Assembly: GCA_046563655.1 (NCBI GenBank)
Contig: CM102283.1
Location: forward strand, 9,796,001 to 9,860,000
Origin: Yuukianura sp. NJ FZ-2021
Taxonomy: Eukaryota
DNA: 64,000 nt
Reading direction: 5' to 3'
The notes under the pieces are model-generated. The model had not been told where the DNA came from and ran no database searches. It saw only the letters and a program-made list of their open reading frames with translations. Positions 305 to 50,900 of this stretch are shown here, in pieces; position 1 is the stretch's first letter; every line of letters begins with the position of its first letter. A program made the translations under genes and the position numbers.

Positions 305-1425
305 ATGGGCGTTTGGATCAAGGTCAAGTTTTTTAAGACAGCAGCCGCTGCCCTCCTCTGTCTTCTTGTACAAGGTAACTTCAAAAATCAAAATTTTGAC
401 CTACGTTGACCTTTGACCTTTCAAAAATGCTTGACCTTTGACTTTTTCTGTTTTTCAGGCGTTGTGAGTGACCCTACTGAAAAATGTCAGCCAAGGAACG
501 AAACCTACGCAATTTCGGATTCTGCACAGTGCGACCTGTTCTACGATTGTCTCAAAAGCGGAAAACTGACAGAGCGCATGTGCGATGACGGATTCGTTTT
601 CTCCGAGGCCATCCGAATGTGCGACTATCCACACAATGTAGACTGCTCCAAACGTCCTAAACTTCGTAAGTTCTGCAGAAACTTAAAAAACTTTCAAAAT
701 TGTCTAAAATTTTGAAAAATTTGCAGAACCGGCGCAATCTACCGACACGAACTGCGAGCGACGCAATGGATTCTACCCGTTTCCGTCGGACATCTCCTGT
801 CAGAAGTTCTACCATTGTCTGGAGGGCGTGGCCTACGAAAAAACATGTCCCGAGGGGGTTATCTTTGACCACAGTCTGGGCACTTGCGTCCATCCCGACT
901 TGTCCCATCGCAAAGACTGTCCGGCGCACACTGTCCTCAACTTCAAATGCCCAAACATGAACCAACGCTTCTCTAAACTCAAATTTGGAGACCACGATCG
1001 TCATCCGCATCCAGACGACTGCAGGTAAACTTTTGACCTTTGACCTTTGACCTCATGACCTTTGACCCTGAAATTTAGTATTTTGTGCTAAAATGTGTGT
1101 AAATTGCAGGAAGTTTTACATTTGTCTGATGGACGGAAAGCCACGTCTTGGCGGTTGTCCCGTCGGGAAAGTCTTCAACTCCGAAACAGGATTCTGCGTT
1201 AAGCCGAAACACGCTCCAGACAATTGGTAAGAAACAGATGCAAATTTTCTGAATTTGAAATTAGCAAAGTGTTTTTGCAACTTATGCTAATTTATGCTAA
1301 TTTTGTGTTTTAGCAAGGACTACTACACGACTGGACCTGGAAAATTAGCCAACTTCGAACTGGAATCTGCCGAGACAGAGAAAAACGCAACCAAAACTGA
1401 AAAAGAAAAAGATTCCAAACAATAA
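305..1425 (+). CDS. Obstructor/CPAP3-family cuticle protein with three chitin-binding type-2 (CBM14) domains, obstructor-E-like; 5 exons
   Basis: Signal-peptide-like start MGVWIKVKFFKTAAAALLCLLVQ, then spliced exons (about 459-665, 727-1024, 1110-1226, 1314-1425) encoding three 6-Cys ChtBD2 repeats (CDLFYDC..CDDGFVF..CDYPHNVDC; CQKFYHC..CPEGVIFD; HPDDCRKFYIC..GCPVGKVFN). TATAAAA at 177. The start codon is less certain because a donor-like GTAAGT lies at 291. Confidence 0.9.
397..1068. promoter_or_regulatory. Clusters of TGACCT nuclear-receptor half-sites, mostly DR1-spaced (TGACCTTTGACCT), in obstructor introns
   Basis: TGACCT at 397, 407, 414 and 432 (intron 1) and at 1034, 1041, 1048 and 1056, plus TGACCC at 1063 (intron 3). 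Function is inferred only. Confidence 0.4.
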
Positions 1426-26103: not shown

Positions 26104-28370
26104 ATGTGCGGAATATTTGCAATCCTTAACTCATCTACAGTTCACACGGAAGAAGGCAGAAAGAAGGCTTTGGCACTTTCCAAATTGTACAAAATATACT
26201 TCAAAGTTAACTTTTTCCTACAATTTTTTTCAATTTCAATGTTTTTAACAGGTTGCGACATCGAGGGCCGGACTGGAGCGGTTGCAAAGTTTCAAACGGC
26301 AACATTCTCTGTCACGAACGCCTCGCTATTGTTGGACTCGGTAACTTTTAGCTTAATCAGCCTAACATAATTAAACAAAAAATAAACAAAATTTCGATTT
26401 CAACAACGTTTGTTTCGTGCAACAAACTATGAACCAATCATTAGTTAACTTTCAGAAATACAAAAGTTTCAAATGGCAACATTCTGTGTCACGAAAGACT
26501 TTATATTGGACTCAGTAGATTTTAAACCAATATTTACAGAAATTGCAAGAAAAGTGAACACTGTTTCAAAAAATGTCTAACCCTGAAAACACTTAACTTT
26601 TCAGTTTCTGCCGTGTCAAATTTAAAAAAAAACGAATTTTGTGTTTGATGGACAATTGTAAAATTTGCAGAACTTTTATTCCTAGACAGTGGATCTCAGC
26701 CACTCACCAATCACGATGGCACACTCATCCTCACAGTCAACGGAGAAATCTACAATCATGTTGAACTTCGCAAGTATCTCAAGAAAGATGTCACTTTTAA
26801 AACACACTCCGATTGCGAAATTATCATTCATCTGGTAACATTTCTAAATTTTACCAAAATTCTAGGAAATTTTCAAAATTTTAACTAAATTTTACGATTT
26901 TTCAATTTTTTTTGTCATTTTTGCAGTACGAAGCCCTTGGACTCTCATTTTTGAATCTTCTGCGCGGAATGTTCAGTTTCGTTTTGTACGACGGAAACAA
27001 AGATTTGTTTCTAATCGCTCGGGATCCAATTGGCATCACTTCTTTGTACCGCGGCAAAAATTCTGCTGCTCCAGAAACAATTTACGTCGCTTCAGAATTG
27101 AAAGCTCTGCAAGAAGATTGTGATGAAATTGAAGTTTTCCCGCCAGGACACTACTACAACTCCGCTTTCGGCAAAACTGTTCGCTACTACACTCCTGATT
27201 GGTGGGACAGCGATCGAATCCCGTCACAGCCATCAGATCTGACCATCCTTAGAGAAGCTCTTGAAGCGGCAGTGCACAAGCGCCTTATGGCTGACGTTCC
27301 ATTTGGAGTTCTGCTCAGCGGTGGACTGGATTCCAGCCTCATTGCCAGCATCACTGTGCGAGAGGCTGAAAAAATACTGCAGTGTCCAGACGAAGATGGA
27401 AGCGCCATCTACAACTGGCCAAAAGTACACTCTTTTTCTATTGGTTTAGAAGGATCACCTGATTTGAAAGCAGCAAAAGAAGTGGCAGATTTCATTGGTA
27501 AAATTTAAAAAAAATTAGTTTCAAAAAATTTTAAATGAAATTTTGAATTTTAAAATATGAAGATTTGAATTCTTAGGAACTAAACATCACAGTTTTATCT
27601 TCACGCTGGAAGAGGCTCATGACGCCCTCTATGACGTCATTTACCACTTGGAAACGTATGACGTCACGACCATCCGGGCGTCAACTCCAATGTACCTTCT
27701 GAGTCGGCGCATCAAAGCCATGGGCGTCAAAATGGTTTTGAGTGGCGAGGGAAGTGACGAAGTTTTCGGCGGCTACTTGTATTTTCACGCCGCGCCGTCA
27801 AGCTCCGCCTTCCACGCGGAATGCGTTTCCCGGGTCAAGAATCTGCATCTATCAGACTGCCTCCGGGCAAACAAGTCCACGATGGCATGGGGGCTGGAGG
27901 CTCGTGTTCCGTTTCTGGACATTGACTTCCTCCAAGTTGCGATGAATATCAATCCGGAAGAAAAAGAGTTCGGAGATGGAAAAATGGAAAAATATGTTCT
28001 GCGCAAGGCATTTGATGTTCCCGAAGAACCTTACTTGCCCCACCACATTCTGTGGCGCCAAAAAGAACAGTTTTCAGATGGAGTTGGTTATGGGTGGATC
28101 GACTCTTTAAAAGAAGCCGCTGAGTCGCACATCAGCGATGAGCTGTTTGATCAGCGACATAAACGCTGGACCGTGGATGTTCCAGAGACAAAGGAAGCGT
28201 ACTGGTATCGCTTGATGTTCGATACGCTGTTTCCGAATCCAGCAGCAGCGTCCACAGTGTCGAGATGGATCCCAAGGTCTGACTGGGGGTGCTCAAGGGA
28301 CCCCTCTGGAAGGGCTCAGAAAGTACACACTGCTGCTTATGCCAACTTCCAAAATGGAAACTCACACTGA
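26104..28370 (+). CDS. ASNS: Asparagine synthetase, glutamine-hydrolysing (fungal/AsnB-type sequence); 5 exons
   Basis: N-terminal MCGI (Ntn Cys); [87 protein letters not shown]. Confidence 0.96.
26456..26514 (+). other. Partial tandem duplicate of ASNS exon 2 inside intron 2 (pseudo-exon or mutually exclusive exon)
   Basis: aaagtttcaaatggcaacattctgtgtcacgaaagact..attggactc closely copies exon-2 sequence 26286-26339. It is flanked by tttcag and gtagat. Confidence 0.75.
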
Positions 28371-30544: not shown

Positions 30545-32374
30545 GTAACACGTATGACATTCCTCGGTGGTTGCGAGTGAGTGAAGATGAACTCGTTTGT
30601 CCAGAACCTACGGGTCAATTCAACCATCCCAAATACTGCGACTTTTTTCTCAACTGCTGGCAAGGTCACGCGGTCGTTGGACGATGTCACTTTGGACTCG
30701 TTTTCAATGAAGTCAACAGAGCTTGTGACTACAGGAGCAAAGTAGACTGCGGAAACAGACCAATTTCGGGTAAAAGTTCCAAAATTTTGGGAATTTTTTT
30801 CAAAATTTAAATTTTTGAAAGTTTGCTAAACCATTTTTTTTTGCTAAAGATGCTGACGAAGCTCCTGCTGCTTCTATTGATCCACAATGCCCGCATTCCT
30901 TTGGGACTTTTGCTGACCCCGGAGACTGTTCTCAGTTTGTAGTTTGCCAGGGGGGACTTGGGTCGGTTAAAAAGTGTCCTCAAGGGAGAGAATACTACAA
31001 CTCTGTAAGTGTCAATCAAGGAAACTAATTAACAGTCTACGCTAACTGTACAAACAACAATTAAAAAATCCATTCACTCAAAACCAGTTTTTAGGTCCTA
31101 GATGAATAATAGCATTCCTTTTTTGCTTCCTCAATTCCAAAAATGACAATGAAAATTAATCATCAAAAAATGGTTGAGATTTTCAAAAATTTTTGCAGGC
31201 CATTGGATCCTGTGATTCGCAAAGGCCTTCGGGATGCCCAGAAATTGGACAAAGTCCACCAACAGCAATTGAATCAACAACCATTCCACCAACAGCAATT
31301 CAATCAACACCCAGCACTGTCCCAATTCTTGGAAGTTCAAGTAAACCGCCGGAAGTGCCGGACTACGAAATCGGTGAACCAGCGCCTGAAATTTCAGCCG
31401 GGGGAACACCAACATTAGCTCCGACGACAAAACGTCCTCAAGCGCCGTTTCGACCGAAACCACCACTTGAGCCAGGCGTTATGCCACCATTTGAAGAAAC
31501 ACCATCACCACCACCAGCAGAACCAGAATCAAAACCACCACAAAACCAAGAAGCCCCGTTTAGCCCCAAACCACCATTTGTTACTGAGAAACCACCAGCA
31601 CAAATTGTCGAACCCCCTCAAGAAAGTGAACCCACAAACCCACCTCAAGTGGATTTCAGCCCTAAGCCACCATTTGTTCCCGCCAAACCACCAAAACCAG
31701 AACCAGAACCACCAAAACCCCAGCCTAAACCCCCTCTGACACCAGAACAAGAACCAGAAGAATCAAATCTCGCGCCGTCAGAAGCCCCACCTACCGGGAA
31801 ACCCTCAACAGTCACAAATTTAAAGCCCAAACCACCACTTCAGCCAAAACCAGACGAAGATCCCGCCAAACCACCACTAATCAACTTAGAAAATCTTAAA
31901 CCCAAGCCGTCTTTTAAACCGCCCGCTTCCGGTGAAAATCCAATCGACGCGCCTCAGGCGCGTCCTCCTCCACTGAGACCCGAAAATTTCAAACCACAGC
32001 GCCCTCCAGGGGCTGAACAGCCTGCTTTGAGCACCTCGACGCATGCTCCGATTGACGGTGAAGATGATCCACACATTCTGTTTCCATTTCTGCCCAAGTT
32101 CCCGGATCTTTTCAAATGTCCAGTGGAGACGATGATGCTGCCAGTATATGGCGACTGCTCTTCCATGATTGCTTGTATTGCTGGTGTTGGACATCGACTT
32201 TTCTGTCCTCCACAACAAACTTTTGACCTTGAACTGAGTCGATGCACTTCCAACGATTCTTTTTGTCCAAAGCACGCGTCCATTTTTATTAGCGGAATGA
32301 AAACAGATTCTCCTGATATCATCTATGCATATTTGCCTGTATCCAAATTGAGTCAATTAGTCAAAGTTAATTAG
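30545..32374 (+). CDS. Peritrophin-like protein: two CBM14 domains, a long Pro/Lys/Glu-rich linker, then a third CBM14-like domain; 5' exons not resolved
   Basis: CPEPTGQFNHPKYCDFFLNCWQG..RCHFGLVFN..CDYRSKVDC; CPHSFGTFADPGDCSQFVVC..KCPQGEYYNS; a linker of more than 250 aa with repeated PKPP/KPP; CPVE..YGDCSSMIAC..FCPPQQTFD..RC..FC. TATA-like TATATAAAA near 30236. Confidence 0.8.
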
Positions 32375-32839
32375 TAATTACAATTGTGACTTTAGTCTAT
32401 GGGTCAGAGGTAAACTAATTAGTAATTGAATAGAAATTGACGTTAATCAAGTTTATACTCTCCAACAAGTGAATAAAATAAACTATAATTTAGCTCATTG
32501 TAATTACTTAGTAACTAGTGCATAATTATTTAGTAATTAGTTAATAATTACATAGTAATTACATAATTACTTAATTTCAATAAATGATTCAGTTTTTAAG
32601 TAGAATTTGCCCAACTCTGGCTTAGGTGACGGTCGGTCTTATGCGGAACCTCTAGTAAGACAAAACGGCGCGAAGTACGAACTTGGTATCGGTTTGAAAG
32701 TTTCCGGTATTCACGATCCGAACTTTGTTTCGGTACCGGCAGAAACTATAATTTAAAGTTTAGTTTACAAGTTGATCTTTTCTTGATTAACGATTAATAG
32801 ATTAATTAAGGCGATTAATTAGTTAAATTTGAGTGGCTG

Positions 32840-33266
32840 ATGGCCCAGAAGAGGAGGGACGAGTGTCAGTCATTTGCTTGTGCCATTCAAGACTGTCTTG
32901 CAAGTAAGTGAAGATTTAAATTTCATAATTAGTAATCGTAGTTTGCTCTGATTGGAAACGTCGACTGTGATTGTTATCTTCGCTATCTCGTTATCTTTTT
33001 AGCATGTTGCGAGACTTTGGCACATCGCTTTTGGCTTGCTCATTCATGTTTTTCTAACCTGGATGCTGTTTTTTGCTACTGTAGAAAACAATTACCAACA
33101 GGAGAAGTGTGAAAACGTTATTGGACGGATGCTTGATTGCTGCGAAGAAAACGGAAGCCAGAACTATCCATCGTGCGACGGATTTAAGTTCCAAATAGCC
33201 AAACGACAGAAGTCTCGAAACGCATCAGCTGCTGGAGACATCGGCAGCAAAACACACACCAATTGA
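32840..33266 (+). CDS. CMC4: Cx9C motif-containing protein 4 (p8MTCP1-like), mitochondrial intermembrane space; 2 exons
   Basis: MAQKRRDECQSFACAIQDCLA / NNYQQEKCENVIGRMLDCCE...SCDGF matches the CMC4 pattern C...AC.IQ.CL..N.Y.E.KC......CC...C.GF. The intron spans about 32904-33084. Confidence 0.88.
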
Positions 33267-33481
33267 GACTCTCCCCGTATGACATTTAGCAAATGCAAAG
33301 CCTTGCCAGTTTGGTTTTCATAGTGGCTTTTAGATTAGAAATCAATAATTCAGTATGTGCTTAGCATCGCTGACAAGTTAACACTAGCATTCAGGAAGTA
33401 CTGCATACTGGTTATGGTAAATTCAAATTCTGAATTGCTCATTTACTAATTCTCACCCCTTCTGTTTTATTGAATTTCAGT

Positions 33482-33869
33482 ATGGAACGATTGAAGACGT
33501 TGATCAGAGGCGAACCTAAAGTCCAGAAGAAGTTCATCCGAGATACCAAAGGTCGACCGTACTACCTCACTTCCCTTTCATTCTACAAAAAATATCCAAG
33601 ATTAGTCGTCTTCGGAGGCGGAACTCTAGCATTTCTCATTACCTACAGTGGATTCTTTTACAACTTAATCTTCACAGAGTGAGTCACAACTAATCAAATC
33701 AACTAAATATTAAACTTATCACTTAATCATTTGTAACTTATACTTTTTTAGCCCTTCTACAGTCAATCCCGCTGATATGCTTTGGCGCAGCGAAATTCAA
33801 TCTGGAGTAACGAAACTAGAACGTTTTCGACAAGCCTTTGCAAAACCACCTCCAGAACAAAGTCCATGA
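33482..33869 (+). CDS. Unrecognised 104-aa small protein with one predicted transmembrane helix; 2 exons
   Basis: Exons 33482-33678 and 33752-33869 (gtgagt donor, tttttag acceptor) join in frame: MERLKTLIRGEPKVQKKFIRDTKGRPYYLTSLSFYKKYPR-LVVFGGGTLAFLITYSGFFYNLIF-TDPSTVNPADMLWRSEIQSGVTKLERFRQAFAKPPPEQSP. Confidence 0.6.
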
Positions 33870-33909
33870 ACAAATCAAATGAAAAAATTTCAAAATCCGA
33901 AGTTTCAAA

Positions 33910-34107
33910 ATGGACTCTGTTGTCAAAGCTAAGAAAAGACTGAGATTGTTTCCTAAATTACTTGGATCCTGTCTTCTGGAAGGAGCAGCTTACGCCAAAT
34001 GTGTTACTCAAACTGACGATCCGAAGTTGCATCAGTGCCAAAAGGAGTTCCTCATCTTTAGACAATGTTTAGAACAGGCTGCCAAGTCCAATTCAACTAA
34101 AATTTGA
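33910..34107 (+). CDS. NDUFAF8: NADH dehydrogenase (complex I) assembly factor 8, twin Cx9C protein; intronless
   Basis: RLRLFPKLLGSCLLEGAAYAKCV...CQKEFLIFRQCL matches the NDUFAF8 pattern RLR.FP..L..C..E.AAY..CV...C..EF...R.C. Confidence 0.88.
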   Translation: MDSVVKAKKRLRLFPKLLGSCLLEGAAYAKCVTQTDDPKLHQCQKEFLIFRQCLEQAAKSNSTKI

Positions 34108-34136
34108 TCATCAAAAGAACTTAAACATAAACCGAA

Positions 34137-35312
34137 ATGTCGTGTTTTGATTCCGTTTTGGGTCATCTGTTTGGAGGTTTTGTGTTGCGGATGGTCATGC
34201 TATCTTATGGCATGTACCAAGATTCAGTGAGTGTCGTTAAGTTTACCGATATCGACTACTCTGTCTACTCTGATGCTGCCCAGTATGTCGTCAACGGATC
34301 GTCTCCCTACAACCGTGAAACTTACCGCTACACTCCCTTGTTGGCATGGATCCTCACTCCAAATTCAACGTACCCATCATATGGAAAGTTCGTTTTTATC
34401 CTCTTCGATCTTCTAACGGCTTACCTCATCATCCTCATTCTGCAACGTCGCAATCCCACGTCAGTCGCAATTCGCTGGAGCTTCCTTTGGCTCTACAATC
34501 CTCTACCGATGGTCATCTGCAGTCGCGGGAGTTCCGAGTCCATCATCCTCGCTCTCGTCCTGGCAACCATCTTCTTCTTCCAGAACAACGCAACTTTAAT
34601 TGCTGGACTCATGTATGGATTATCTGTGCATTTCAAACCATACACTCTCCCCTTTTCACTGCCGCTGTACTTAGCCTCAGTCAAGATTTCAGACAAGGAC
34701 AAACCTTACTGGAAGTCTCTGTTTTGTTTCTCCTACCAGCGACTTCGTCTCGTCACTGGAGCTGTCATTGGATTCGGTCTTCCTACGCTCATCTTCTACC
34801 ATGTCTATGGAATGGAATTCCTTCAAGAAACGTACTTGTATCATCTCATCCGGAAAGACATCAAGCACAACTTCTCCGTCTACTTCTACCTCCTCTACCT
34901 CCACCATTCAGACGAATCACTACTGCTCAAATTGGCCACTTTTCTACCCCAACTAATTGTGCTCCTTGTAATCAGTTTCCAGTTCCCCTCCAAAGAACTG
35001 ATTCCCTTCACCTTCTTCCTCCAAATCTGTACTTTTGTTATCTTCAACAAAGTATGTACTTCCCAGTACTTTTTGTGGTACTTGAGTATCCTGCCTCTCC
35101 TTGGACCGAATCTGAAGCTCAAGTGGACTCATGCCCTTCTACTCTTTGCTCTTTGGTTCTTCATCCAAGTATCGTGGCTACTTCCGGCCTACTATCTGGA
35201 ATTTGAAGGCAGAAATACTTTCATCTACATTTGGGTGGAATCAATTGCTTTCTTTTCCGGAAACATCGGCATTCTTCTTCAAATAATCAAAAATTATAGT
35301 TACCCGGCTTAA
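34137..35312 (+). CDS. PIGM: GPI mannosyltransferase 1; intronless, multi-pass membrane protein
   Basis: VKFTDIDY (DxD motif); SPYNRETYRYTPLLAWILTPN; WLYNPLPMVICSRGSSES; YLYHLIRKDIKHNFSVYFY; FNKVCTSQYFLWY; WLLPAYYLEFEG. Confidence 0.96.
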   Translation: MSCFDSVLGHLFGGFVLRMVMLSYGMYQDSVSVVKFTDIDYSVYSDAAQYVVNGSSPYNRETYRYTPLLAWILTPNSTYPSYGKFVFILFDLLTAYLIILILQRRNPTSVAIRWSFLWLYNPLPMVICSRGSSESIILALVLATIFFFQNNATLIAGLMYGLSVHFKPYTLPFSLPLYLASVKISDKDKPYWKSLFCFSYQRLRLVTGAVIGFGLPTLIFYHVYGMEFLQETYLYHLIRKDIKHNFSVYFYLLYLHHSDESLLLKLATFLPQLIVLLVISFQFPSKELIPFTFFLQICTFVIFNKVCTSQYFLWYLSILPLLGPNLKLKWTHALLLFALWFFIQVSWLLPAYYLEFEGRNTFIYIWVESIAFFSGNIGILLQIIKNYSYPA

Positions 35313-36308
35313 TTTTAATAGGATCTTGTTGTTAGGAAGTTAGTGAGGTCAAATTAGTCAATTAATGAGTCAGTAATTTGTGGAAATGCGTGGAAAGTCT
35401 AGTAGAATTGCAAAGATTTAGTGTAGATTTAAAAGTATTGAGGCCGTTTAGTAAAATTATTGGTTTAATTGCCGTAGTTCAATAGTTATTAATTTAAATT
35501 GTAATTAAAATTGTTAGTGTGATTTAAATATTGAGATTGGTTATGAATTTGAATGATGCGATGTGATATGCGAGATATGAGGGGAGATCGACTTTCGACT
35601 GCTTTTCAACATGATTTGCTGCAAGCTTTTTTTTTGAAAAACACAACCAAAAATTCCTTGCAGAAAATCAAGACGAGCATTTTCTGCAAGCAGGAGAACT
35701 AGTACCTTTGCGTAGGTTTTGGTGGAGGTATATGGAGTCCATTTGGTATTTCCGAGTGATTAGTAACTGGACCGGAAGGATTTTGTTGTTCAGATGCTGT
35801 GACTACTGGTGGAGGAGCTTGAGGGAACAGGCTTTGGTAAATATTCGGTAATCACCACAGTGATATTGTTGACTGTCACTGGCTCACTGTGCACTTGGCT
35901 TCGGTCTACGTTCTTCAGTCGAGGGCGGCTATAAGTTAAAAATCACCAATTAGCAACAATTTCGTCCGTTCACACCGAATTAAATCCATCCGTCGAAATT
36001 TTTTCCACTGGATTTTCTTGTAGTGTGATGCGATGAGGAGACCAAAAGCTTAGTTTTTCAAATGCTGTTTTTATTTTGTGTATTAAATTTAGGATTTATC
36101 ACTACATGTTACCAGGAAATTATGAAATGCATTTCGACATTGGACAATGACGTGGGCTATTCCTATCTAAATGTAAAGCAGAGCGGATATCACACTCAAA
36201 GTGGTGTAAATTGGCGCATTTCTGCCAATTAAGCTTTTGATTATTTAAATTATTTGTAAATTGTTTTACTTAGGAAGATCGTATCAAAAGGAAATAAGTT
36301 TGGATGGT

Positions 36309-39038
36309 CTAATCTAGAAACAAGTCATTCCAGGGGAACGGTGGTATACAATGTTCTTCAGTAACAATCACTGAATCATGGTACTTCATCAATACTTCCA
36401 GGTACTCGTCCTTCTGAAATTGGAAATTTTATCTTTATTCACATATTCTCTTTTTAAAAATTTTGGAATATTAGGATTATGTGTAGAAAGTAATTCAACA
36501 CTCACCTCATTAAAATCCTCAGGATCGAAGACGAGTTTTTGAAGGCGTCGTAGTTGCCCAGTTTGGCTGGCGTAAATAACCCCCTTCCAGCACTCAATTT
36601 TCAGGAACGATATGAACTTCAAATGTGTCAGTACTAGTAAAAGCAAACAACATTTGTCAATACATGCACCGCAACGTGAACGATCATTTTGTATTTCTGG
36701 ATGGATTTTTTTTTGGCGTTTACAACGGTTTACTAATTTATCGATCAAAAAATTAAAAGATAAAAAGCTGTATTATAAAAATTGATGACTTACACGGCAA
36801 ATTTCGAAAAGAATCAATTGACTCGGAAGTTTTCTCAACTACTGGCAGAGAATTGGTGATGTCGCCATTCGAAATGTATTCAGCTCCGTTGGTTAGGTGG
36901 TTCCAGTGTTTAAATTGAAGTTCACGAATATCATCAGGTTCATTTGCTTCAGAATGGACATAAATGTGCAGTTTCTGAACCTTTGGAAACTGGAAAATCC
37001 CTTTCAATGTTTCAGAGGCAACGCACAATTCAGTAACGTTGGGCAGTACGGAAGGCCAATGTTGACGCTCTTGGTCCGTTTTCAAGTAGATATTTGCGTA
37101 TTTCACATTTGGAAAAACACATCCAGCAAACATGAACTTATCCGTCGTTCCACGATATATGCAGTCGAGCGATGTTAGAGCTGGAAATTCCACCGTGTGA
37201 CGTAAAGTGACTGATTCGTATGGGAAATAAAGTTCCAGACATTGAACATTTGCGAGGGAACGGAGTGGTAGTTCAATTGGACCAATGTAGTGGTTATGAC
37301 CATTGTCGTCTCTCCAGAAGTGGAGACATTCTACATATAATCTGCGCAAAGATGTCAGCTTTGGAATCCATTTTGAAATAATTTCCAGGGTTTGAGCTAC
37401 ACTTCCAGAACTGGGATCCCGTGGAATCAAGAATAATTCCAAGTTGAGAATTTTGAATTTCGTTGAAACTGCAACCAAGTTTTCGAGGTCACTGATGTTC
37501 ACCTCTGGAAAGTGAATAATCAGATGCAACTTTTGAATGTGGACGATTCTATTGATTTTGAAGAGATGGTTTAAGATGTTTGGCGCAAGAGTACGGTATG
37601 ATGTCTCATGATAGTGTAAATCTCCAACACATTGGATTGAAACGTTCCGAAGATTTGGAGCCTTTTGCAGAAGAACCAGAAGATTATTGAAATCCACTTT
37701 GTCCATAGAATCGTCGGCTTGGATCTTGATTGTTTTTAACTTTCTGAGTGCAGGCATTTCCAGAATATTGGCCATTTCCTCTTTCACAGTTGGCACAGTT
37801 CCCTCTTCCCCAATTCGATAACGGATTTTTTCTACATTTTCGCATGTTTCCAACAGGATTTGGAAGTTGTTGAACAGAGAATTCTGTTTTAGCGGTTGCC
37901 GGCAGGACATCCAAATTCGCCAGCATTTAACAATCCTTCCAAACTGGACACAAAACTCTTCCAGTGGCTCCCCATACGCGGAGAGATGTTGCGAAAATCC
38001 AAACTTTTTGAACGGAACGACCGTTTCGTTTTGTCCAAACACCGAAATAAACTTGACAATGTCAGAGTCTTCTGTAAAGTTCACTCGAAACAACTTGGTC
38101 ATACATGTCGTTGCTAGTTGGTTGAAGCGGTGATTGACCAGGCGCAACTTTGGAATTTCTTGCTTCCTCAAACAACCGATGATTTGAAGCACAATCTGAA
38201 ACACAATAAGATTGTTAATCATTTGAAGTCAACAAGAACGTGTCTAATTTTAACTTTTTTGTATGTCAAATGTTGTTCGAGCTGAGATTCTTGTTGTATA
38301 AAAATACGTCTTGGATGTTTAAAATAACGTTATTCAGTGGAATGCAAAACCAAAAGACAGTGCCAAAATATCCGCATATTCCCTGTCAACCTGTGTAGAG
38401 TCTAATTTGTTTCAAGGTCGAAGATTGCAATAGTTTTTACAACTAGGAGCCAAGTTGACCTTACCTCGTTTGGAATGGAATCCATGTTGGCACTGGCAGT
38501 GGAACACAAACGACCAGGATCACTTGCGAGAGACGGAGTCGTTGTTGTGACTTTTTCCAATTTTGCGGGTACTGGTTTTGACGATGAAGCTGACGACGAA
38601 GGAACTGATGTTGAAGATGCCACAGTCGTTCCTAATGTTGCTTCTTCATTGCTATTCCCAAAGGCCAAGGTCTTCGACTAGAATAATTACAAAAGCAATT
38701 ACCAATTGAATTTAGGTCAGTTTATGAAATGAAACTCACTTTTTCATGAGCAACCTTGGCATGCCTCAGAATGGCAATAATGTCTCCCATAGCAGTGATT
38801 TCCATATCGCGGAGACACTCTTTCGTAAGATCCAGGAGCATGTCCGGTTTAATCCGATTGTCTTCAAACACCAACGCATATTTGGTGTCGAAAGTGGGTA
38901 GAATTCCAGCATTCCTGAAGAAGTCCAACCAGAAGGCTAAACAAGACAAAATATCAAATTAAAACAAATTGAATTCCCAAACTAATTCGTAAATCAGTGG
39001 AAATTCTTACCATATAACTTTCCCTTTTCAGCAGACAT
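36309..39038 (-). CDS. Chimeric gene: C19orf47-derived SAM-like N-terminus fused to an F-box / LRR-like protein
   Basis: Predicted exons 39038-39011, ~38936-38740, ~38677-38465, 38195-36794, ~36633-36506 and ~36414-36309 join in frame. The duplicated C19orf47 exons run into ...PSLASDPGRLCSTASAN-MDSIPNE|IVLQIIGCLRKQEIPKLRLVNHRFNQLA (F-box), followed by LRR-like repeats (PALRKLKTIKI, APNLRNVSI, LTSLRRLYV, FPALTSL, FPNVK, LPNVTEL). Confidence 0.75.
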
Positions 39039-40158
39039 GTTAAGGCTAGTAGATCTTGACTTGAGGACGTAGACGTTGACCTACCGGTAGAAACCTTATA
39101 AGATGCTTTGTGTGACGAAGTGGTTCTTAGTTTGATGGAGCAGATTGGAAAATGAAATGGAATGCAACGCGAATGTTATACGGAACACCACGAACGATTG
39201 ATTCAACGTCACTTGCTGTTGATAGTTCCCGGAAGATTACTAAAATAACTTTCAGTTAACTCAAGGTAAATAGAATAGTAAAGGAGTTAACTATGTTAAT
39301 TCGGTTTCAAATTTAACCAATAATAGTGTCATTTAAAACATCGCAGCGTTAAAATTCAAACTTGTATCGCGAATCGCTATTGGTTGGATTAGTTCTGACA
39401 AATCTGACAGTTCTTAGGATTAGTTGACTCATTCCTCGTTGACGTTTCGATCATCAGCTGGGCCAATTAAGATTTTGTTTCTAAAGTTTCATTTCTCATT
39501 TAGCATCTCCCTTCTAATTAATCGATTAACTTCTACGCAGCTGTTGATGTTACATTCCATCATCAGCATCTTATAAGGTTTCTACCGATAGGTCAACGTC
39601 TACGTCCTCAAGTCAAGATCTAACTAGCCTTAACATGTCTGCTGAAAAGGGAAAGTTATATGGTAAGAATTTCCACTGATTTACGAATTAGTTTGGGAAT
39701 TCAATTTGTTTTAATTTCATATTTTGTCTTGTTTAGCCTTCTGGTTGGACTTCTTCAGGAATGCTGGAATTCTACCCACTTTCGACACCAAATATGCGTT
39801 GGTGTTTGAAGACAATCGGATTAAACCGGACATGCTCCTGGATCTTACGAAAGAGTGTCTCCGCGATATGGAAATCACTGCTATGGGAGACATTATTGCC
39901 ATTCTGAGGCATGCCAAGGTTGCTCATGAAAAAGTGAGTTTCATTTCATAAACTGACCTAAATTCAATTGGTAATTGCTTTTGTAATGATTCTAGTCGAA
40001 GACCTTGGCCTTTGGGAATAGCAATGAAGAAGCAAATAACGAAACAGCAGGAACGACTGTGGCATCTTCAACATCAGTTCCTTCGTCGTCAGCTTCATCG
40101 TCAAAACCAGTACCGGCAAAATTGGAAAAAGTCACAACAACGACCCCGTCTCTCGCAA
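38524..40158. repeat. Near-perfect inverted duplication: arms ~38524-39107 and ~39565-40158 (about 0.59 kb), spacer about 457 bp
   Basis: ORFs 38722..38949(-) and 39724..39951(+) translate identically, and the 5'UTR and introns also match. Visible differences are scattered substitutions, a 1-bp UTR indel and a 9-bp in-frame indel (EEATLGTT vs EEANNETAGTT). Confidence 0.97.
39108..39564. promoter_or_regulatory. Putative bidirectional promoter between the chimeric F-box gene and C19orf47
   Basis: Divergent ATGs at 39038 and 39635; CAGCTG E-boxes at ~39455 and ~39538; ATTGG (CCAAT-like) at ~39379 and CCAAT at ~39463. Confidence 0.5.
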
Positions 40159-41731
40159 CGACTTCCAAAGTTTCCGGTATGCTTTTATGGATTACTTTAG
40201 TGTTTAACGTTCCTGATGTCGTACATGTGCAAAGCAATAATGGTAACAATATCTTGTTTCTATGCAGTGAATGTGAAGGCTCCAAACAAAACAGCGAAGG
40301 ATTCAACCAAACTTGCAGAATCTACTAAGACAGATCCAGAACTAGGAACTGCTGGAACAGTTCCAGCTAAGCAGGAAGCTGAGAAACAGACAGGAAAAGC
40401 TCAAAAACGATTTATCATCGTTGATCCAGAAAGCAGCTCGGATTCTGATCTTCCAGATCCAGTGAAACGTCCACGGGAAGCCTCTCCTGCTGAGCAAAAG
40501 AAACGAAGTTCAAATGCTTCTGAAGGCTTCTCTGGTCTGCTCAGTAGTCGACGTAAGTTGAACACAACTTGATTAGTCCTTCTAAGTTTTAAATCCTAAA
40601 ACTATTCCACCAGTTGGACCATCAGTTAGCACGGAGAAGGTGAAACCGTCGACTACGAAAGGAGTATTCGATAGACTCGGGAGAACGAGTGACGGAAACC
40701 CATGCATCTCCGGAGAAGCAACAATTATTAGACCAAATCCTTCATCAACTATTTCTAAATCTACTATGGCCAGTGGAAGCGATGTAAGGATTTTTAAAAT
40801 TACATTTTTATTAAAAATCATCAGACATTTCTAATAAGCTGTTTCTTCTTTTCAGTCTTCTTCAGTATTTGAGCGATTGGGACAAAGGGGAAGTGCCAGT
40901 GTATCTACATCAACTAGAACTACTGCTGATGAACCCAGTTCATCTCGTTCTCGTCCTCAAGATGACTTTGATCGACGTCGTGAATCTCTAAGGCGAGACG
41001 ATTACCGAGACAGCTCCAGAGTCGAGGGAAGCGATCGTCGCATCACTCTGCGTCAAAGATCGCCACAACTGGCCAGTCCAGGTAAAACGTTCTCAAATTT
41101 TTTTAATAGTAAGTTGATAAAATAGATTCCTCCAACTTTGGATTTTCCACTTTTCAGTGGTGAGAGTGGCACGGAATCCACCAGGATATCGCTCACCTTC
41201 AAGCACTGTTTCACGCTTGCATTCAGACGTGTCTGATTATAAAACACCAAGTCCACGTAAATCCAAAAATATTATATAAAATATAATAAAATAAGATAAT
41301 AATATAATAAATAAGAAATATATATATAATAAGTTATAAATATAATAATAAATTATAGCTTTCTTTGTTAACAGGAGGTCGAGGTGAGGCTGATTTGAGG
41401 TCAAGAGTTGGTTCTGGAACTGGAAGGGAAAGTCGGAGAAAGGTGAATAAATAGCTTAGTAAGCCAATTACATTTAACTATGCGGTGAGTTCAAACGTTT
41501 TTCTTCCTTCTTTCAAATGTACTTTTGTTTTTGTAGATAATTGGGACTACTATTATCAAGACTAAAAACCGCGGGAGGGACTTCCGTGTGGGTCAAGTAC
41601 TTAAATCAACCAGGATCGAACGGAGCGATGGGACTTCAGTCGTTCAACGCTTCATTGTCAAGAAAGTTTCAAAACCACCACCAACACGTCGCGGATATCT
41701 CCGCAGTCGCAGTCCCTCCGAATCCGATTGA
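39635..41731 (+). CDS. C19orf47: C19orf47 homolog (N-terminal SAM-like/DUF5577 domain, low-complexity Arg/Ser-rich remainder)
   Basis: [55 protein letters not shown] matches C19orf47 W..FF..AGIP...YA..F.DNRI...MLLDL.KE....G.T..GDIIAIL.HAK. Downstream repeats GVFDRLG, SVFERLG and HCFTLAF-adjacent RL motifs; stop at 41729-41731. Confidence 0.85.
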
Positions 41732-42103
41732 ATGCTGAATACTAAAACTACTGGGCTAATTCTTTGTAATTTGGTTGTTTACACCTAGTGCCACTAAAAC
41801 AATACCCTATCATACTAGATACTAAAAAAATACTAAGTTTGTTACTAACGATAAAAGCATGGTCTAGGCCTGTCAAATTTTTGTAAATACTTGTGTATTT
41901 AGTGAATTAAATGGAGTGTGCAACACTTCACCTAAAAGGTAGCAATGTTGTGAGAGCGAAAGAGTCGAGAAGTTGTTTATTTCAGAACTGGAAAGACAAT
42001 CAAGAAAATGCTACCGTGGATTACTTAATCAATTACGATTAGTAATCGTAATACTAAGTTTACATGATTGTGATGATTGGATTCTGGAACGTTGACGAAG
42101 TTT

Positions 42104-42968
42104 TTACGTTGGAGGGGCTTGTTTGGCCATGTCCCGTATCTGAGTGTTGCTCAGAATTTCGACGGGTTGTTGGTTCGTGTTGAAAATGTTGAGAACAATG
42201 GCAGTGGCAACTGCAGAAGTTTCGATGCTCATCAACCGCCAGCGGTCGAGACAACTTGTGACTGATTGCAAAAAAGCTTCCGGAGCACGTCTTTCCGTTC
42301 GATTGCAGAGGAGAACTCCCGGTTGATATATCGATAGTCGCTCAAACTTCATGGCTGTCAGTTCAGCTTCAACTTGACCTTTGACCTTCATGTACAGGAA
42401 GGACGAGTCCTTGTTGGCTCCGCCAGAAGAAACTAAGCTGAAGTGTTTGGTGCCAGCGTCCTTTGCCAATTGAGCAGAGTTGACAATGTAGTCGTGATCC
42501 ACTTTCTTGAACCCTTCGACCCCTGACTTGGCCCGGGTAGTTCCAAGGGCACAGATTCCAGCGTCATATCCCTTGAAGTCCTCAGCATAAGCTGTCAGAT
42601 TGTCAAAGTCAATTATCTTCTGAATGAACTTTGCATATCCCTCGGACTTTGGCAAATCAACCAAACGTCGTCCAAGGAGCGTGACCTTTTCAATTCCAGC
42701 GTTTTCAGCTAATTTCTTGACTACTTCCTTGCCGACTTCCCCAGTGGCTCCAAGGACAAAGACGGAGACTGATCGTTGGGACATGTCAAACTCAAAGACG
42801 AACGGTTCCTATCATAAATCAAAACGTTATAACAATTCCCAAATACGATACTTAAAAGTAAGTAAATGACTTTACCGAAGTTGGGATAAAATCCTGTAGA
42901 TAATAGTATCCTGCAAGAGAAAGGATAATGATCAGTATGGAGGATGTGAACAGTTTGGAGTTGTTCAT
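42104..42968 (-). CDS. HTATIP2: Oxidoreductase HTATIP2 (TIP30), with a probable N-terminal signal anchor exon
   Basis: VFVLGATGEVGKEV; CALGTTRAKSG..GFKKVDHDY; SLVSS.GANKDSSFLYMKVKGQVE; SIYQPGVLLC.R.E.R. Upstream exon 42968-42876 (MNNSKLFTSSILIIILSLAGYYYLQDFIPTS) splices in frame to EPFVFEFDMSQR. Confidence 0.93.
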
Positions 42969-43397
42969 TATCAGTCAGAGTACCCTTAAGAAAGCTCCAG
43001 CTGGAATGGTAGGTCCTTAAATTTTAGCAAGTGTCAGATCACAATGACATGCACAACTTCTGTCGTTCCGTCCAGATGATCAGCTGACTCGAGTGTCCGA
43101 ACCGTCAAGTCCTTTATACCGACCGCCACATGTGTTCGGTGCTCAAACTCCACGAACCACGAAGAGAATACCCACCAAGGACACACTGACACTTCCTCAC
43201 TGTTGAAACGCACATGTTATTCGCAGTAATCATCTTGTCTAATTTGAACCATAGATCAGCTGATCAATAGATTAAAAACATTACTGCATTGAATTATTCG
43301 TACTAAAACCATCTCATTTCATTCAATTTTTAGTACTCGGCTACCTTGGGCTTGGACAATTAATCGCTGCAGCGATATCCAATAGACTACACTAAAC
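42969..43397. promoter_or_regulatory. Putative bidirectional promoter for HTATIP2 and SLX9
   Basis: 429 bp between divergent ATGs; GATCAGCTGA at ~43077 and the palindrome GATCAGCTGATC at ~43254, resembling the housekeeping E-box (Ohler motif 5). Confidence 0.5.
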
Positions 43398-44288: not shown

Positions 44289-45420
44289 TTATGGCTTATC
44301 TTTCTCTTCCATTTCCTCAGCACCAGCCACCACTGCCTTAGTTTGTCGGTTACGCGGAGGCTTTTTGACAGTCAAGTCCACAGTTCGCAGTGGCGTAAAT
44401 CTTGGTAGTGCAGAAGGCTCAACATAAATCAAAGGCTGGAAGTCCCCTATGTCGCCCAGCACGGTTATTTGTGGTTCGTCCGTATCCAGCACTTCCACTG
44501 GGGGAGCCATGTATATACCATCAGATGTAGATGTCGCAGGAACTTCTGCTGAAGCTTCAGCAGGTTGCCGCCGTGTAATGTTTCTTCTGGTCATTTTCAA
44601 AACCTTGTGAACTTTTGCCACCAGTTCGTAATCGGTGTTGCAGTATTTGTGATTTGAGAAAACCGGATTCAGAGGAGGGTCTGGCTCTGGGATCAAAGAC
44701 GTCAAAACCGTCTTTGGAGGCGGTTGATTTGTCGATAGTGGATCGCGTTCCGGTTCGGACTCGGCTTGGGAATCTGCCTTGGAGTTGTCAGTCTTCTCAC
44801 GAAATAGTAAATTCGTCCCCATCGGCTCTTCGTACTTCCCCATGTAGAAACTAAGAATCAAAATGTAACACAACTCTAATTAAAATTCACTCAACTAATT
44901 AAAACTCACAAAACGTTACTCACCGTTCTCCAATTTGTAGAATAGGATGATCGTCATCTAGGTTGTAAAATACGAGACTAATCTTCGGTCGTGTGGGTTT
45001 AATAACTTTGGGGTTCTCTTCCCTGTGCCGTTTTGCTTGGCTTAGAAGGAAGTCATCTGGTTCCTTGGCAAAGAGCTCTTGGATGTTTGGAATGTCATCA
45101 AGGTCAACGTAGATCAAAGTCTCTTCCCAATCATCGTCGTCAGCTCCTTCCGGACACTCTTCTTCGTCAACTTCCATTTGTTCGGCATCCACATCGATAG
45201 TAATAGGTTCATCTTGAATGACGTTGGTTGAGAGAGGATCCCGCGGAATCCTGAATCGGACGTTGTCATCATGACGGTGACGACGAATAGTCGCTCTGGA
45301 TGTTGAGGGTTGTTCTCTGTCAATTGGTTGTAACTGAATTACGGAAGAGGTCAATCGTTCCGGAATACCGGAATCTGGAGGATGGAAAATTATCTCCACT
45401 TGGTCCGTCAAATCCTCCAT
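44289..45420 (-). CDS. GTF3C6: General transcription factor IIIC subunit 6 (TFIIIC35 / tau55-like); 2 coding exons
   Basis: An acidic run then EETLIYVDL, NLDDDHPILQIGER|FYMGKYEEPMGTNLLFRE and YELVAKVHKVLKMTR fit the TFIIIC_sub6 domain (PILQ.....F.G.YED..GT...F.E). Confidence 0.8.
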
Positions 45421-46118
45421 ATCTTTTTAGAAACAAAAACAACAGAACATCAATTAGTTTAAGCTTAATTCTACGGTAACGTCTGATCAGTTAATTAAGT
45501 AAAACTTACTAGTAGACCTGCTGTGACGTTTGTTTTGCGAAATACAAGGTTAGTAGACGTTCAAATCCCGATTCCCGACAAGAGGAACAAGGAATTTGGT
45601 TTGTTTCCACTTTTGGAGGATGCGGTGTAGAACGGAGTGCGGACCGAAAGGCTAACAAAAATCTTCCCAAAACTTTGTTTTGGGTTTATCATTTGAATTT
45701 GAGTACAGAGTTCCCGCAATTTAATCCCAGCTCCAAAATTGCTTGGAGACTAATCCTATGAAAATGAGGAAACCGCTGACATGGTTATCTGAGTATTAGA
45801 CATCTCTAGAATACGAACATGAGACAAAAGTGCGGGAAATGTTCTCTCAAATTCAAAAAAAAAAAAAACTAAAATCAAAACAAAAAATAGTAACAAAAGA
45901 CAAACCAAAAGAATTTAGTAATCCGAATTCAATCATTGAATTTCAATGTTGTTATTATTGAGTTCATTGAAGTCGATTAGTATCTAATTAATCAATGATT
46001 TGTTTTAGGAATTAATTAGTAGTTGTAGTACTAATTAATCTAATCTAATCTAGTACTAATTAATCTAATAATAACTTTGTCTTATATGCAAAAGAAGATC
46101 AAACAGAAAAGATTACGA

Positions 46119-47235
<1,117 letters not shown>

Positions 47236-47978: not shown

Positions 47979-50900
47979 ATGTGTGACGTGAAGTGCCGCC
48001 AGTTTTTAGTTTTTCCATTTTGGATTTTATTTTGGTTCATTGCCGAAAGTAGTGGACAGTGGCCTGCACATGGTAAGCCCAACTTTTTCCTTAATTTTGA
48101 AATGAATGAAAAGCGCTGGAGTGTTGAACTAATCGCTTCTGAGACGCTGACTTTAGTGTTATCTTTATCACTTCTCTAAAAAAGAAAGCCAGAGACACAA
48201 ACATCAGTTTCCGTTGGACAAGATGAAAAGGGCAATGACCTTTTGTGCAAAATTCAACTAATTCTAACTTTTCAAAACTGTTTGAACAGTTTTTGAAAAT
48301 GGGACAACTTTTTGTCATTATTTATTTTCAGATTTTATAGATTTGTTAGAAGCGACTAGAGTTTCCGAGATTCCGCTTGGCGTGACAAGGACGAGGGGAT
48401 TTTGCGAGAGAAGACCGATTTCTGTGGTCCCACCGGGTGGGACCAGAGATGCTGAAGATCATGAGGATGATGTAGCCTACAGAATTTCATCTTCTGCACT
48501 CGTTTCCATCAACACCGCTGAAATTTTCCCAAGTGACACATTTTAAACACTTCTCCATTAAATTCCGCAATGACATTTTTAATTTTAATTTGTAGATGGA
48601 TTTCCAAGAGATTTTTCCATCGTTTCAACAATTCGTCCAGAAGTGGATACTCGCTCAGTGTTGTTTTCCGTGTACAATGACATTGGAGACGAGCAGTTGG
48701 CAGTCGAAATCGATGACAGAGTCACTCTCATTTATGAGGTACGTCAACAAAAAATTTGTTTTCCTAAATTTCAATTTTTGGAACATGAAAGTTTAGAAGT
48801 GGAATTTTTTTTAGGACAATGCCATTGAGCCTCCGAATGTCTACAGAGCTTCGTTTGATGTGACGATAAACGACGGAAAGTAAGGAACAGAGTGACTGAA
48901 AAGTGGCAAATTTTGTACTAAAAAGTGTCTAATTTTGTGCTAAAAAGTGTTTAATTTGTTAGGTGGCATCGACTGGGCATGAGTGTGAAGGGGAACTCCG
49001 TCACACTTTTAGTGGACTGTCGAGAAGTGGGTTACCTCGTGTTGAATCGAACTGGTGGCTCTGTTCCCGCCAACTCAGGCGTCCTCCTCATCGGTCAACA
49101 GTTGCTAAACGACAAAGCATTTTTCCTTGGCGACATTCAGCAGTTGATGATAGTTCCGGATCCAGCGGCAGCCTACGACGTCTGCGTCAAGTACATGCCA
49201 GCATGTCACCTCCCCTTTCCAAGGATACAAACGGAGCAAGAGGGAGAAGTGGATAGAGGACGTTCCAAGCCTGCAAATGAAACGGTAACACTCCAAAAAA
49301 AGTCAAAAAAGTTCATTTTTGAGTTTTTGTTTGGAATTGAAGGTTGAATCTGCGAAGATTGTTTACATTCGTGGGGCGAGAGGTTATGCTGGTCATCCGG
49401 GCCCTCAAGGGCCAAAAGGCGACAAAGGTGAAGCTGGCCGCGATGGCCTGAATGGCGTTGTGGGTTCTGCTGGAGCTCCTGGACATGTTTTCATGATTCC
49501 AGTAAGATATGGATGTTCAAAATTTTAAAATTTGGGAAAAATAAAAAGAAAATTTTGATTTTATTTTGTTTAGCTTAGTTCTGCCATCAGTGGAGGCGGT
49601 GGATCCAAAGGCCCTGACGCCACTGCAGAAGCTCTGAGGCAAATGCTGGCCCAGCACATGGTACCTATTTTTCTAAAAAGTAAGGAAAACGTAAAACTAA
49701 ACTTTAGTTTCTAATTTCAGATGGCAATGCAGGGACCTGTTGGTCCGGTAAGACAAATCAATCAATTTGTAATTTTTGGAATAAATATATAATTAAAAGT
49801 AATTAAAATATTTTTGTCAGGTTGGTTTAACCGGAATGCCTGGGCCTATCGGTATGAAAATTGGAATTGTACTCAAGCAGTATTTGTAGTTCAACTTTTA
49901 AATTTAAATGTAAATTTTAGGACCGACGGGTTCGGATGGACAGAAAGGGGAGCAAGGCGAGGTAAATAGAACAGAGATTAATTAGTTGAAAGTTGTTCTG
50001 ATTAATTCAACTATTAACCAAATTTTGGTATTGCAGTCTGGGGGTAAGTTTTCAAAAACATTTTCCAAAGAGAAGGAAAACTGAAACAAAGTGAAATTTT
50101 CAGAACATGGACCAAGGGGTCACAGAGGAGAGGTAAGAATTTTCTATTTAAAAAAAAACAATTGAAATTTGAAACTAATCTTGATGTTGAGATGGGGGAG
50201 AGGGGCAGAGATGGAAAGCGGGGCAGAGCTGGAAGAGACGGAGGTAAGCTTGTACATTGTTAAATTTCATGAAATTAGTTACGTAATTATGAAACTTTCA
50301 AAATTGAAACAATATTTTTAGAGCGTGGGATTTCCGGACCTCCTGGTAAGTTTTTCAATTCAGTTTTTTGGTGTGGCGTTCTTCTAACACACAACGTATT
50401 TTGAAAATTAGGTGAGAAGGGAGAAGTAGGCCCTCAGGTAAGGCTTTATTTATAAACAACAGTTATAACAAAAATTCCAATGAAAATTCTAATTGATTTT
50501 TGTTTGCAGGGTATTCCGGGGTAAGTTAACTTTTTTGATAAAAAATTATGACGGCACGTGTAAATGTAAACTTTTTTCGTAAAATTTGAAAGCTTGCCTG
50601 GTGAAAAGGGTGATCGCGGAGAAAGTAAGTGAAAGTTTCTATTATTCTTCATTTTGCAACAGTTTGTAGCATAATCGTGTCTTATATTTTAGAAGGCGCA
50701 CAAGGCGAGAAAGGGGCTCCTGGACATGATGTAATGACCTTTGACACTTTAAAATTCTGAATTATCCAAATGACAAAGATGACATTATGCTATTTCTGAT
50801 AGGGCGAGGCAGGTGACGTTGGTCCACAAGGATCCGTAAGTTTTAGAGATTTAAATTAGACTTTTAATTAAATTGTTAAAGTAAATTAACTTCCAAATGG

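Follow-up and report, generated by a model that had tools for sequence, protein, structure and literature searches.

A conserved cluster of four open reading frames ending in PIG-M as a candidate orthologue of the polycistronic PIG-M locus of Drosophila

Gene content of the cluster and its products

A 64-kb window from Yuukianura sp. NJ FZ-2021 (contig CM102283.1; the window is the whole stretch of 64,000 nucleotides that was analysed) contains four open reading frames (ORFs) on the plus strand between positions 32840 and 35312. In order, they encode a CMC4-like protein, a membrane protein translated from a small open reading frame (smORF), a twin Cx9C protein that is NDUFAF8-like, and PIG-M, or glycosylphosphatidylinositol (GPI) mannosyltransferase 1. 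We consider it probable, at roughly 60%, that this locus is the orthologue of the polycistronic PIG-M locus of Drosophila and that all four ORFs are carried on one mRNA. Positions are given in window coordinates on the plus strand, ORFs were listed over 32400-35800, and exons were joined by script (Table 1). The original prediction had placed four same-strand ORFs here with stop-to-start gaps of 215, 40 and 29 nt, and these coordinates are confirmed. Its gene names are also reasonable, with the qualification that "NDUFAF8" is based on family features and not on a direct comparison. The intron inside the smORF was absent from that earlier description.

The CMC4-like product is 81 amino acids (aa) long and has both C-x9-C pairs in the joined frame. 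Its second exon alone matches the Pfam family CMC4 (PF08991) with an E-value of 7.4e-6 and a score of 26.6 bits, below the cut-off of 28.9, and it aligns colinearly with PDB entry 1hp8, "Cx9C motif-containing protein 4" (E 0.13). Products were compared with the corresponding fly sequences by eye, in ungapped and unscored alignments, and by this measure 20 of the first 41 residues of the CMC4-like protein are identical.

The third cistron, a single exon of 65 codons, encodes the arrangement C21-x9-C31, 11 residues, C43-x9-C53, so that each of cistrons 1 and 3 contains two C-x9-C pairs, in line with the prediction that two of the upstream products are Cx9C proteins. Its Pfam matches, to CX9C (E 6.9e-5) and CHCH (E 0.02), both fall below their cut-offs, no NDUFAF8 chain is present among its PDB matches, and a homologue search recovered one metagenome protein (P0001, 78% identity). 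The cistron resembles the "group 8" class of twin Cx9C ORFs, whose human representative of 74 aa we take to be NDUFAF8. Group 8 ORFs have two C-x9-C pairs separated by 11-15 residues, and in arthropods they are 65-69 aa long, have no introns, and lie upstream of a putative mannosyl transferase on one transcript, an association dated to 300-500 million years (PMC2075485). Cistron 3 shows every arthropod group 8 feature given there. It is equal in length to the fly sequence, with the four cysteines aligned and 24 of 65 residues identical by eye. Its N-terminus is basic, with a net charge of +5 in the first 19 residues, and resembles the weak targeting signal described in PMC10174193.

The identity of the fourth cistron is clear from a match across the full Pfam profile PF05007 (positions 1-259 of 259; E 1e-74; 252.2 bits against a cut-off of 23.4). 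Its nearest Atlas clusters are named "GPI mannosyltransferase 1", with Arthropoda as their commonest phylum. A D-x-D motif is essential in PIG-M. In the product of cistron 4 this motif (DID) is found near the N-terminus.

In the 104-aa product of the second cistron, a basic N-terminus precedes a single hydrophobic segment and a short tail. An exhaustive HMMER search with its first exon recovered six relatives at E <= 0.001 among 1.84 billion representatives (alignment A1). Two of these are full-length proteins of 120-125 aa (P0005 and P0006) whose C-terminal part resembles the exon-2 peptide. A profile search returned the same family, in which P0006 carries the name of an uncharacterized protein from the springtail Folsomia candida. 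The sequence itself points to an arthropod-like source with no close affinity to flies. Pfam contains no family for the first exon, and the relatives gave only chance-level Pfam matches (E >= 0.03). A word-based homologue search with the smORF found nothing, its Atlas features returned only weak bacterial look-alikes (0.85-0.87), and PDB sequences gave only chance-level matches to the A1 profile (E >= 0.28). Complex prediction for PIG-M together with the first smORF exon yielded no answer (score 0.00). The available text of a paper on Tribolium smORFs (PMC13670568) was searched and makes no mention of PIG-M or CMC4. The middle cistron defines a small unannotated family of membrane proteins, with six relatives in 1.84 billion representatives and none assigned to a Pfam family.

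Table 1. Features of the four-ORF cluster in the window and of its counterpart in the metagenome contig L001 (rows marked L001 are in the coordinates of that contig).
Feature	Position	Strand	Remarks
Putative promoter and 5' leader	32600..32839	+	GC about 0.40, AT-rich flanks 0.22-0.28
Cistron 1 (CMC4-like), exon 1	32840..32903	+	ATG at 32840; 21 codons and 1 nt, then GTAAGT donor; holds first C-x9-C pair
Cistron 1, intron	32904..33084	+	GTAAGT...CTGTAG; joining the exons gives an open frame of 81 aa
Cistron 1, exon 2 and stop	33085..33266	+	Match to Pfam CMC4 PF08991
Spacer 1 (215 nt)	33267..33481	+	Without AATAAA or ATTAAA; AATAAT at 33344
Candidate 64-nt intron in spacer 1	33417..33480	+	GTAAAT donor, TACTAAT branch-like site, pyrimidine tract, CAG acceptor
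Cistron 2 (single-pass membrane smORF), exon 1	33482..33678	+	Relatives found with HMMER
Cistron 2, intron (73 nt)	33679..33751	+	GTGAGT...TTTTTTAG; position and phase kept in L001 (598-708)
Cistron 2, exon 2 and stop	33752..33869	+	Joined frame of 104 aa
Spacer 2 (40 nt)	33870..33909	+	55% A
Cistron 3 (twin Cx9C "group 8", NDUFAF8-like)	33910..34107	+	65 aa, intronless
Spacer 3 (29 nt)	34108..34136	+	55% A
Cistron 4, PIG-M (GPI mannosyltransferase 1)	34137..35312	+	Single exon, 391 aa, Pfam PF05007
Probable 3' untranslated region with candidate poly(A) signals	35313..35530	+	AGTAAA at 35450, ATTAAA at 35504
L001, CMC4 exon 2	24-181
L001, smORF	401-597 and 709-826		Intron at the same place and in the same phase as in the window
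L001, Cx9C ORF	868-1065
L001, PIG-M	1160-2335

Conservation in a related contig and structure of the spacers

Scanning metagenome contigs with PIG-M recovered a 10.4-kb contig, L001, that contains a related locus. L001 begins inside the equivalent of the CMC4 intron, with the same acceptor context, and is genomic, because its introns are retained. The order and strand of the four ORFs are the same as in the window, and the gaps between them are 219, 41 and 94 nt. Amino acid identity between the two loci is 76% for the CMC4-like protein (proportion of nonsynonymous differences, pN, 0.14; proportion of synonymous differences, pS, 0.88), 58% for the smORF product (pN 0.28, pS 0.85), 78% for the Cx9C protein (pN 0.13, pS 0.70) and 83% for PIG-M (pN 0.11, pS 0.76), in which the D-x-D motif is kept. 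Across the four ORFs pN ranges over 0.10-0.28 and pS over 0.70-0.88, such that synonymous sites are saturated, and blastn similarity between the two loci is confined to coding parts. Because pN is far below pS and nucleotide similarity is limited in this way, the four ORFs are constrained: all are protein-coding and under purifying selection.

The two short spacers of the window are A-rich, as predicted (55% A, 7% G), and spacer 2 of L001 is similar in length and composition (41 nt, 51% A, 2% G). The earlier description of these spacers as free of AATAAA, of polypyrimidine acceptors and of room for a promoter also holds. No AATAAA occurs on the plus strand anywhere in 32580-35800, neither spacer 2 nor spacer 3 has a pyrimidine tract and AG close to the AUG, and 29-41 nt is too little for a cleavage site and a promoter. 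ATTAAA had been reported only after PIG-M (35504), which is incorrect, as a second copy lies at 33709 inside the smORF intron. Weaker hexamer variants are present in each gap of the window, namely AATAAT in gap 1, AATGAA at 33878 in gap 2 and CATAAA at 34126 in gap 3. In L001, an AATAAA at 2541 lies about 200 nt past the PIG-M stop. The longest words shared between the spacers of the window and of L001 do not exceed chance, their length being equalled by 331, 1140 and 1958 of 2000 shuffles for spacers 2, 3 and 1, respectively. Folding at the junctions was no more stable than in shuffles (z from -1.4 to +1.0; -1.4 for spacer 2 and +0.9 for spacer 3), and nothing suggests a structured entry site.

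Spacer 1 exceeds the other spacers of the window 5- to 7-fold in length and plausibly contains an intron (33417-33480), as had been predicted. The acceptor AG of this candidate (33479-33480) lies 1 nt before the smORF ATG. The equivalent region of L001 has a GTATGA donor at 322 and a CAG acceptor at 397-399, enclosing 78 nt and likewise ending 1 nt before the smORF ATG. The candidate intron is probably real, since its anatomy is common to both species even though neutral sites are saturated. If so, its conservation links the smORF start to an exon that follows the CMC4 stop immediately.

At least 466 nt separate the cluster from neighbouring genes. Upstream, a plus-strand proline-rich ORF of 398 aa (31178-32374) is followed by AATAAA at 32472, 32477 and 32579. 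The composition profile shows strong C and A skew over this ORF, and its six-cysteine C-terminal region weakly resembles the chitin-binding Peritrophin-A domain (CBM_14; E 0.0017, below cut-off), as would suit an arthropod. Further upstream on the same strand, an asparagine synthase (GATase_7 and Asn_synthase) spans at least two long open frames (26885-28370). Downstream of PIG-M, the next long ORFs are on the opposite strand and start beyond 36389. Colinearity with L001 extends past the cluster, with L001 from 3063 onward corresponding to the window from 43392 onward. The distance from PIG-M to the next syntenic gene is about 8 kb in the window (35313-43390) and about 0.7 kb in L001 (2336-3062). 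The extra 8 kb or so is a lineage-specific insertion or deletion, and holds a minus-strand pair of ORFs of 491 and 127 aa without a Pfam family (36389-38228) and a minus-strand NAD(P)-binding ORF (42104-42808). Beyond it lie a minus-strand ORF similar to TFIIIC subunit 6 (44289-44876), a plus-strand ATG5 gene of several exons encoding UblA, HBR and UblB (46044-47235), which is conserved and colinear at L001 5926-7646, and plus-strand open frames (48589-49528) in which a weak match to Laminin_G_3 (E 0.0045) precedes collagen-like Gly-X-Y repeats, a mark of a metazoan genome. A tRNA scan returned no genes, and a search of the window and L001 (74 kb) against Rfam gave no match at gathering scores, neither to a spliced-leader (SL) RNA nor to any other family.

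A shared message and its alternatives

In D. melanogaster, the PIG-M gene CG9865 has a transcript (FBtr0071680) with three upstream ORFs (uORFs) encoding conserved peptides (Hayden & Bosco 2008, PMC2276209). The first is a homologue of the twin Cx9C protein p8MTCP1 (CMC4), the second, as given in the supplement, is a small protein with one hydrophobic segment, and the third is a twin Cx9C protein, the "group 8" ORF from an earlier study of plants by the authors. The lengths of uORFs 1, 2 and 3 are 65, 84 and 76 aa in Table 1 of that paper, and the supplement has 76 aa for uorf1 and 65 aa for uorf3; labels 1 and 3 seem to be swapped between the two, because these lengths are reversed. Single expressed sequence tags (ESTs) of D. 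pseudoobscura (DR121964) and D. willistoni (EB454746) each contain uorf1, uorf2, uorf3 and the start of PIG-M, while an Aedes EST joins uorf2 to uorf3 and ESTs of Bombyx and of the pea aphid Acyrthosiphon join uorf3 to PIG-M (PMC2276209). FlyBase R6.04 has two tetracistronic loci (Crosby et al. 2015, PMC4528330). One of them, CG42381/CG42379/CG42380/CG9865, is recorded as "polycistronic" and "all di/polycistronic", with a 1-nt overlap (-1) followed by spacers of 8 and 22 nt.

The likeness to this locus is what leads us to favour a single four-cistron message in the window. The original prediction of a tri- or tetracistronic mRNA joining small mitochondrial proteins to PIG-M is supported through orthology, by way of the fly ESTs, the FlyBase record and the arthropod Cx9C-PIG-M pair. 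One promoter upstream of the CMC4-like gene would drive a primary transcript over all four ORFs, from which three short introns (in CMC4, in spacer 1 and in the smORF) would be removed. The mature mRNA would be polyadenylated only after PIG-M, perhaps accompanied by an isoform that contains CMC4 alone and stops in spacer 1. It is almost certain that both short junctions are internal to a single mRNA, and hence that the message has at least three cistrons. The presence of CMC4 on every message is less sure, because spacer 1 is long and its L001 counterpart contains an AATAAA.

Several observations weigh against a single message for all four ORFs. The conserved order is by itself no proof of selection for linkage, because the colinearity of the two loci extends well past the cluster; the tight spacing is the unusual part of this conserved locus. 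The AATAAA in spacer 1 of L001 (position 275) is followed by a T-rich stretch and lies 42 nt before the intron donor. The AATAAT of the window is similarly placed, the two hexamers being 78-94 nt after the CMC4 stop, and CMC4 transcripts may for these reasons often end in spacer 1. Spacer 3 of L001 contains an ATTAAA at 1141, 19 nt before the PIG-M AUG. Spacer 1 of the window is 215 nt long (about 151 nt if spliced), against a 1-nt overlap in the fly, and it holds four AUGs that open ORFs of 8-23 codons. Out-of-frame AUGs are not depleted in the Cx9C ORF of either species (2 in the window against 2.3 expected from codon shuffles, and 4 in L001 against 2.5), and ORFs of 65-104 codons fall outside the textbook conditions for reinitiation. 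The HMMER search with the first smORF exon did not reach dipteran proteins. Homology between the smORF and fly uorf2 is weakly indicated by position, topology and a match by eye, in which 9 of 38 residues around the membrane segment are identical and the spacing from "PRL" to "DP" is the same.

The points concerning spacer 1 would also suit two transcription units, in which a monocistronic CMC4 mRNA ends in spacer 1 and the smORF, the Cx9C ORF and PIG-M form a tricistronic message, which is either started within spacer 1 or produced by splicing of the CMC4 exon-1 donor to 33480, skipping CMC4 exon 2. The candidate poly(A) signals of the two species, the relative length of spacer 1 and the conserved acceptor 1 nt before the smORF AUG fit this arrangement, as does the remark in FlyBase that genes at the 5' end of polycistronic loci are often also expressed as monocistronic isoforms, terminated at an upstream poly(A) site (PMC4528330). 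We nevertheless regard two units as unlikely. Spacer 1 of the window has no canonical poly(A) signal, and if transcription began between the putative cleavage site and the donor, no more than about 50 nt would remain for a first exon. In both species the spacer-1 donor lies downstream of the candidate hexamer, which fits read-through transcripts. In Drosophila, single ESTs join uorf1 to uorf2, uorf3 and PIG-M, and the FlyBase entry gives no monocistronic isoform (PMC2276209, PMC4528330).

It is very improbable that the locus consists of four closely packed monocistronic genes, with promoters inside preceding coding regions and non-canonical poly(A) signals overlapping the next gene. The weak hexamers of gaps 2 and 3, the ATTAAA of L001 spacer 3 and the variable distance from the Cx9C ORF to PIG-M (29 nt in the window, 94 nt in L001) are what such genes might show. 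Set against them are spacers of 29-41 nt, too short to hold both a cleavage site and a promoter where other intergenic distances here are at least 466 nt, and ESTs from fly, mosquito, moth and aphid orthologues that span these junctions (PMC2276209).

The remaining alternative is an operon whose polycistronic precursor is cut by SL trans-splicing before each downstream cistron. Such operons occur in nematodes and tunicates, and also in copepods and amphipods. In both species the smORF AUG is preceded, at a distance of 1 nt, by a strong acceptor (pyrimidine tract and CAG), a placement typical of trans-spliced genes, and L001 has an AATAAA about 125 nt upstream of this acceptor. Even so, we consider this reading barely credible. 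The acceptor before cistron 2 is the only one, and it can be accounted for by an ordinary intron, given the good cis donors 64 and 78 nt upstream in the two species. Spacers 2 and 3 of the window and spacer 2 of L001 lack a pyrimidine tract with an AG near the AUG, Rfam finds no SL RNA in the window or L001, and the insect orthologues remain polycistronic in mature ESTs (PMC2276209).

Returning to the four-cistron message, every cistron would be translated, the first by ordinary scanning. For the polycistronic loci of the fly, FlyBase leaves the mechanism open between internal ribosome entry sites and resumed scanning (PMC4528330). The original prediction held that upstream out-of-frame AUGs make simple leaky scanning less plausible than reinitiation or internal entry. 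Its doubt about leaky scanning stands for PIG-M, which 13 AUGs precede, with the correction that the counts upstream of the smORF, Cx9C and PIG-M starts (6, 10 and 13) take in the cistron starts and in-frame Met codons as well. With these 13 AUGs, and with no AUG depletion in cistron 3, leaky scanning was rejected as the only way to reach PIG-M. Out-of-frame AUGs are depleted in the CMC4 frame of the window (0 observed, 3.4 expected, P 0.018), and L001 CMC4 exon 2 likewise has none (1.8 expected, P 0.12). The smORF has 1 in the window (1.6 expected, not depleted) and 0 in L001 (2.0 expected, P 0.09). In spacer 2, an AUG at 33879 opens an out-of-frame ORF of 17 codons (33879-33932) that overlaps the Cx9C start; spacer 2 of L001 has no AUG. 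Start contexts are good beside the short spacers (caaaAUGg and cgaaAUGu) and weak at the first cistron (gcugAUGg). Since the short spacers are A-rich and unstructured and have good start contexts, resumed scanning after termination fits, and the AUG-free CMC4 frame with its weak start suits some leaky scanning past cistron 1. Later cistrons are thus probably reached by resumed scanning, perhaps aided by leaky scanning through the AUG-poor first cistron. We infer this mode of translation of cistrons 2-4 from AUG counts, start contexts and folding.

Comparison with known polycistronic systems

Like the SL operons of nematodes and tunicates, the locus is a tight same-strand cluster, probably with one promoter. 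Precursors of SL operons are resolved into monocistronic mRNAs at trans-splice acceptors, whereas here an acceptor is missing from two of the three junctions, and in insects the orthologous mRNAs are polycistronic in their mature form.

Human PIGY/PYURF (PreY) is a bicistronic mRNA that joins a small mitochondrial protein to a protein of GPI-anchor synthesis. It differs from the present locus in its genes (PYURF and not NDUFAF8, PIG-Y and not PIG-M) and in having two cistrons and not four, and is of independent origin. A curious parallel exists between the pairing of NDUFAF8 with PIG-M in arthropods and that of PYURF with PIG-Y in vertebrates; it leaves our assessment of the locus unchanged. 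No paper combining PYURF, PIGY and NDUFAF8 was found in the literature library searched. PYURF and NDUFAF8 have been proposed to cooperate with NDUFAF5 in the matrix, and stabilization of NDUFAF5 is stated for PYURF and proposed for NDUFAF8 (PMC10174193). On a bolder view, the four-cistron message of CMC4, a transmembrane microprotein, NDUFAF8 and PIG-M would be much older and wider than the dipteran ESTs indicate, occurring with introns and a spliced first spacer in a lineage whose microprotein is nearer to that of a springtail than to that of a fly; the pairing of an NDUFAF5 cofactor with a GPI enzyme, an independent parallel to PYURF-PIGY, would mean that complex I assembly and GPI synthesis are functionally linked, and not that genes were fused by accident; and the microprotein would be a new player in one of these pathways. 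We think this combination of claims quite unlikely to be correct as a whole.

In human MTCP1/CMC4, as here, CMC4 (p8MTCP1) shares a transcript with another ORF (PMC2276209), but its partner p13MTCP1 is unrelated to anything at this locus. The arthropod pair of a group 8 ORF and a mannosyl transferase (PMC2075485) is closer, and corresponds to the intronless 65-aa twin Cx9C ORF with 11-residue spacing that lies directly upstream of PIG-M in the window. The system described in that paper is bicistronic only; in plants and nematodes the small ORF is joined to unrelated main ORFs, and in vertebrates it is a free-standing gene.

The closest system is CG42381-CG42379-CG42380-CG9865 of the fly. The four products, their order and the single strand are alike, with cistron 2 matched by position, topology and the 9 of 38 residues identical by eye. 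In both loci the spacers before cistrons 3 and 4 are short and purifying selection acts on the upstream ORFs. The window has 40 and 29 nt in spacers 2 and 3 (L001 41 and 94 nt) and the fly 8 and 22 nt; the values of window and fly are of the same order. Here CMC4 and the smORF are each interrupted by an intron, and spacer 1 holds a candidate one; the comparison with the fly covered products, order, strand, spacing and selection. The arrangement is therefore already known and curated in Drosophila, and what is new is its occurrence in another lineage, with a long first spacer that holds a candidate intron and with introns in two cistrons. For one of the very few curated tetracistronic mRNAs of animals, the locus supplies an example that does not look dipteran, and it suggests that the four-gene arrangement as a whole, beyond the Cx9C-PIG-M pair, is ancient. 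Natural variants are also available here for the question of how ribosomes reach a fourth cistron, with a first spacer of 215 nt and an intron compared with a 1-nt overlap in the fly, and a third spacer of 29 nt compared with 94 nt in L001.

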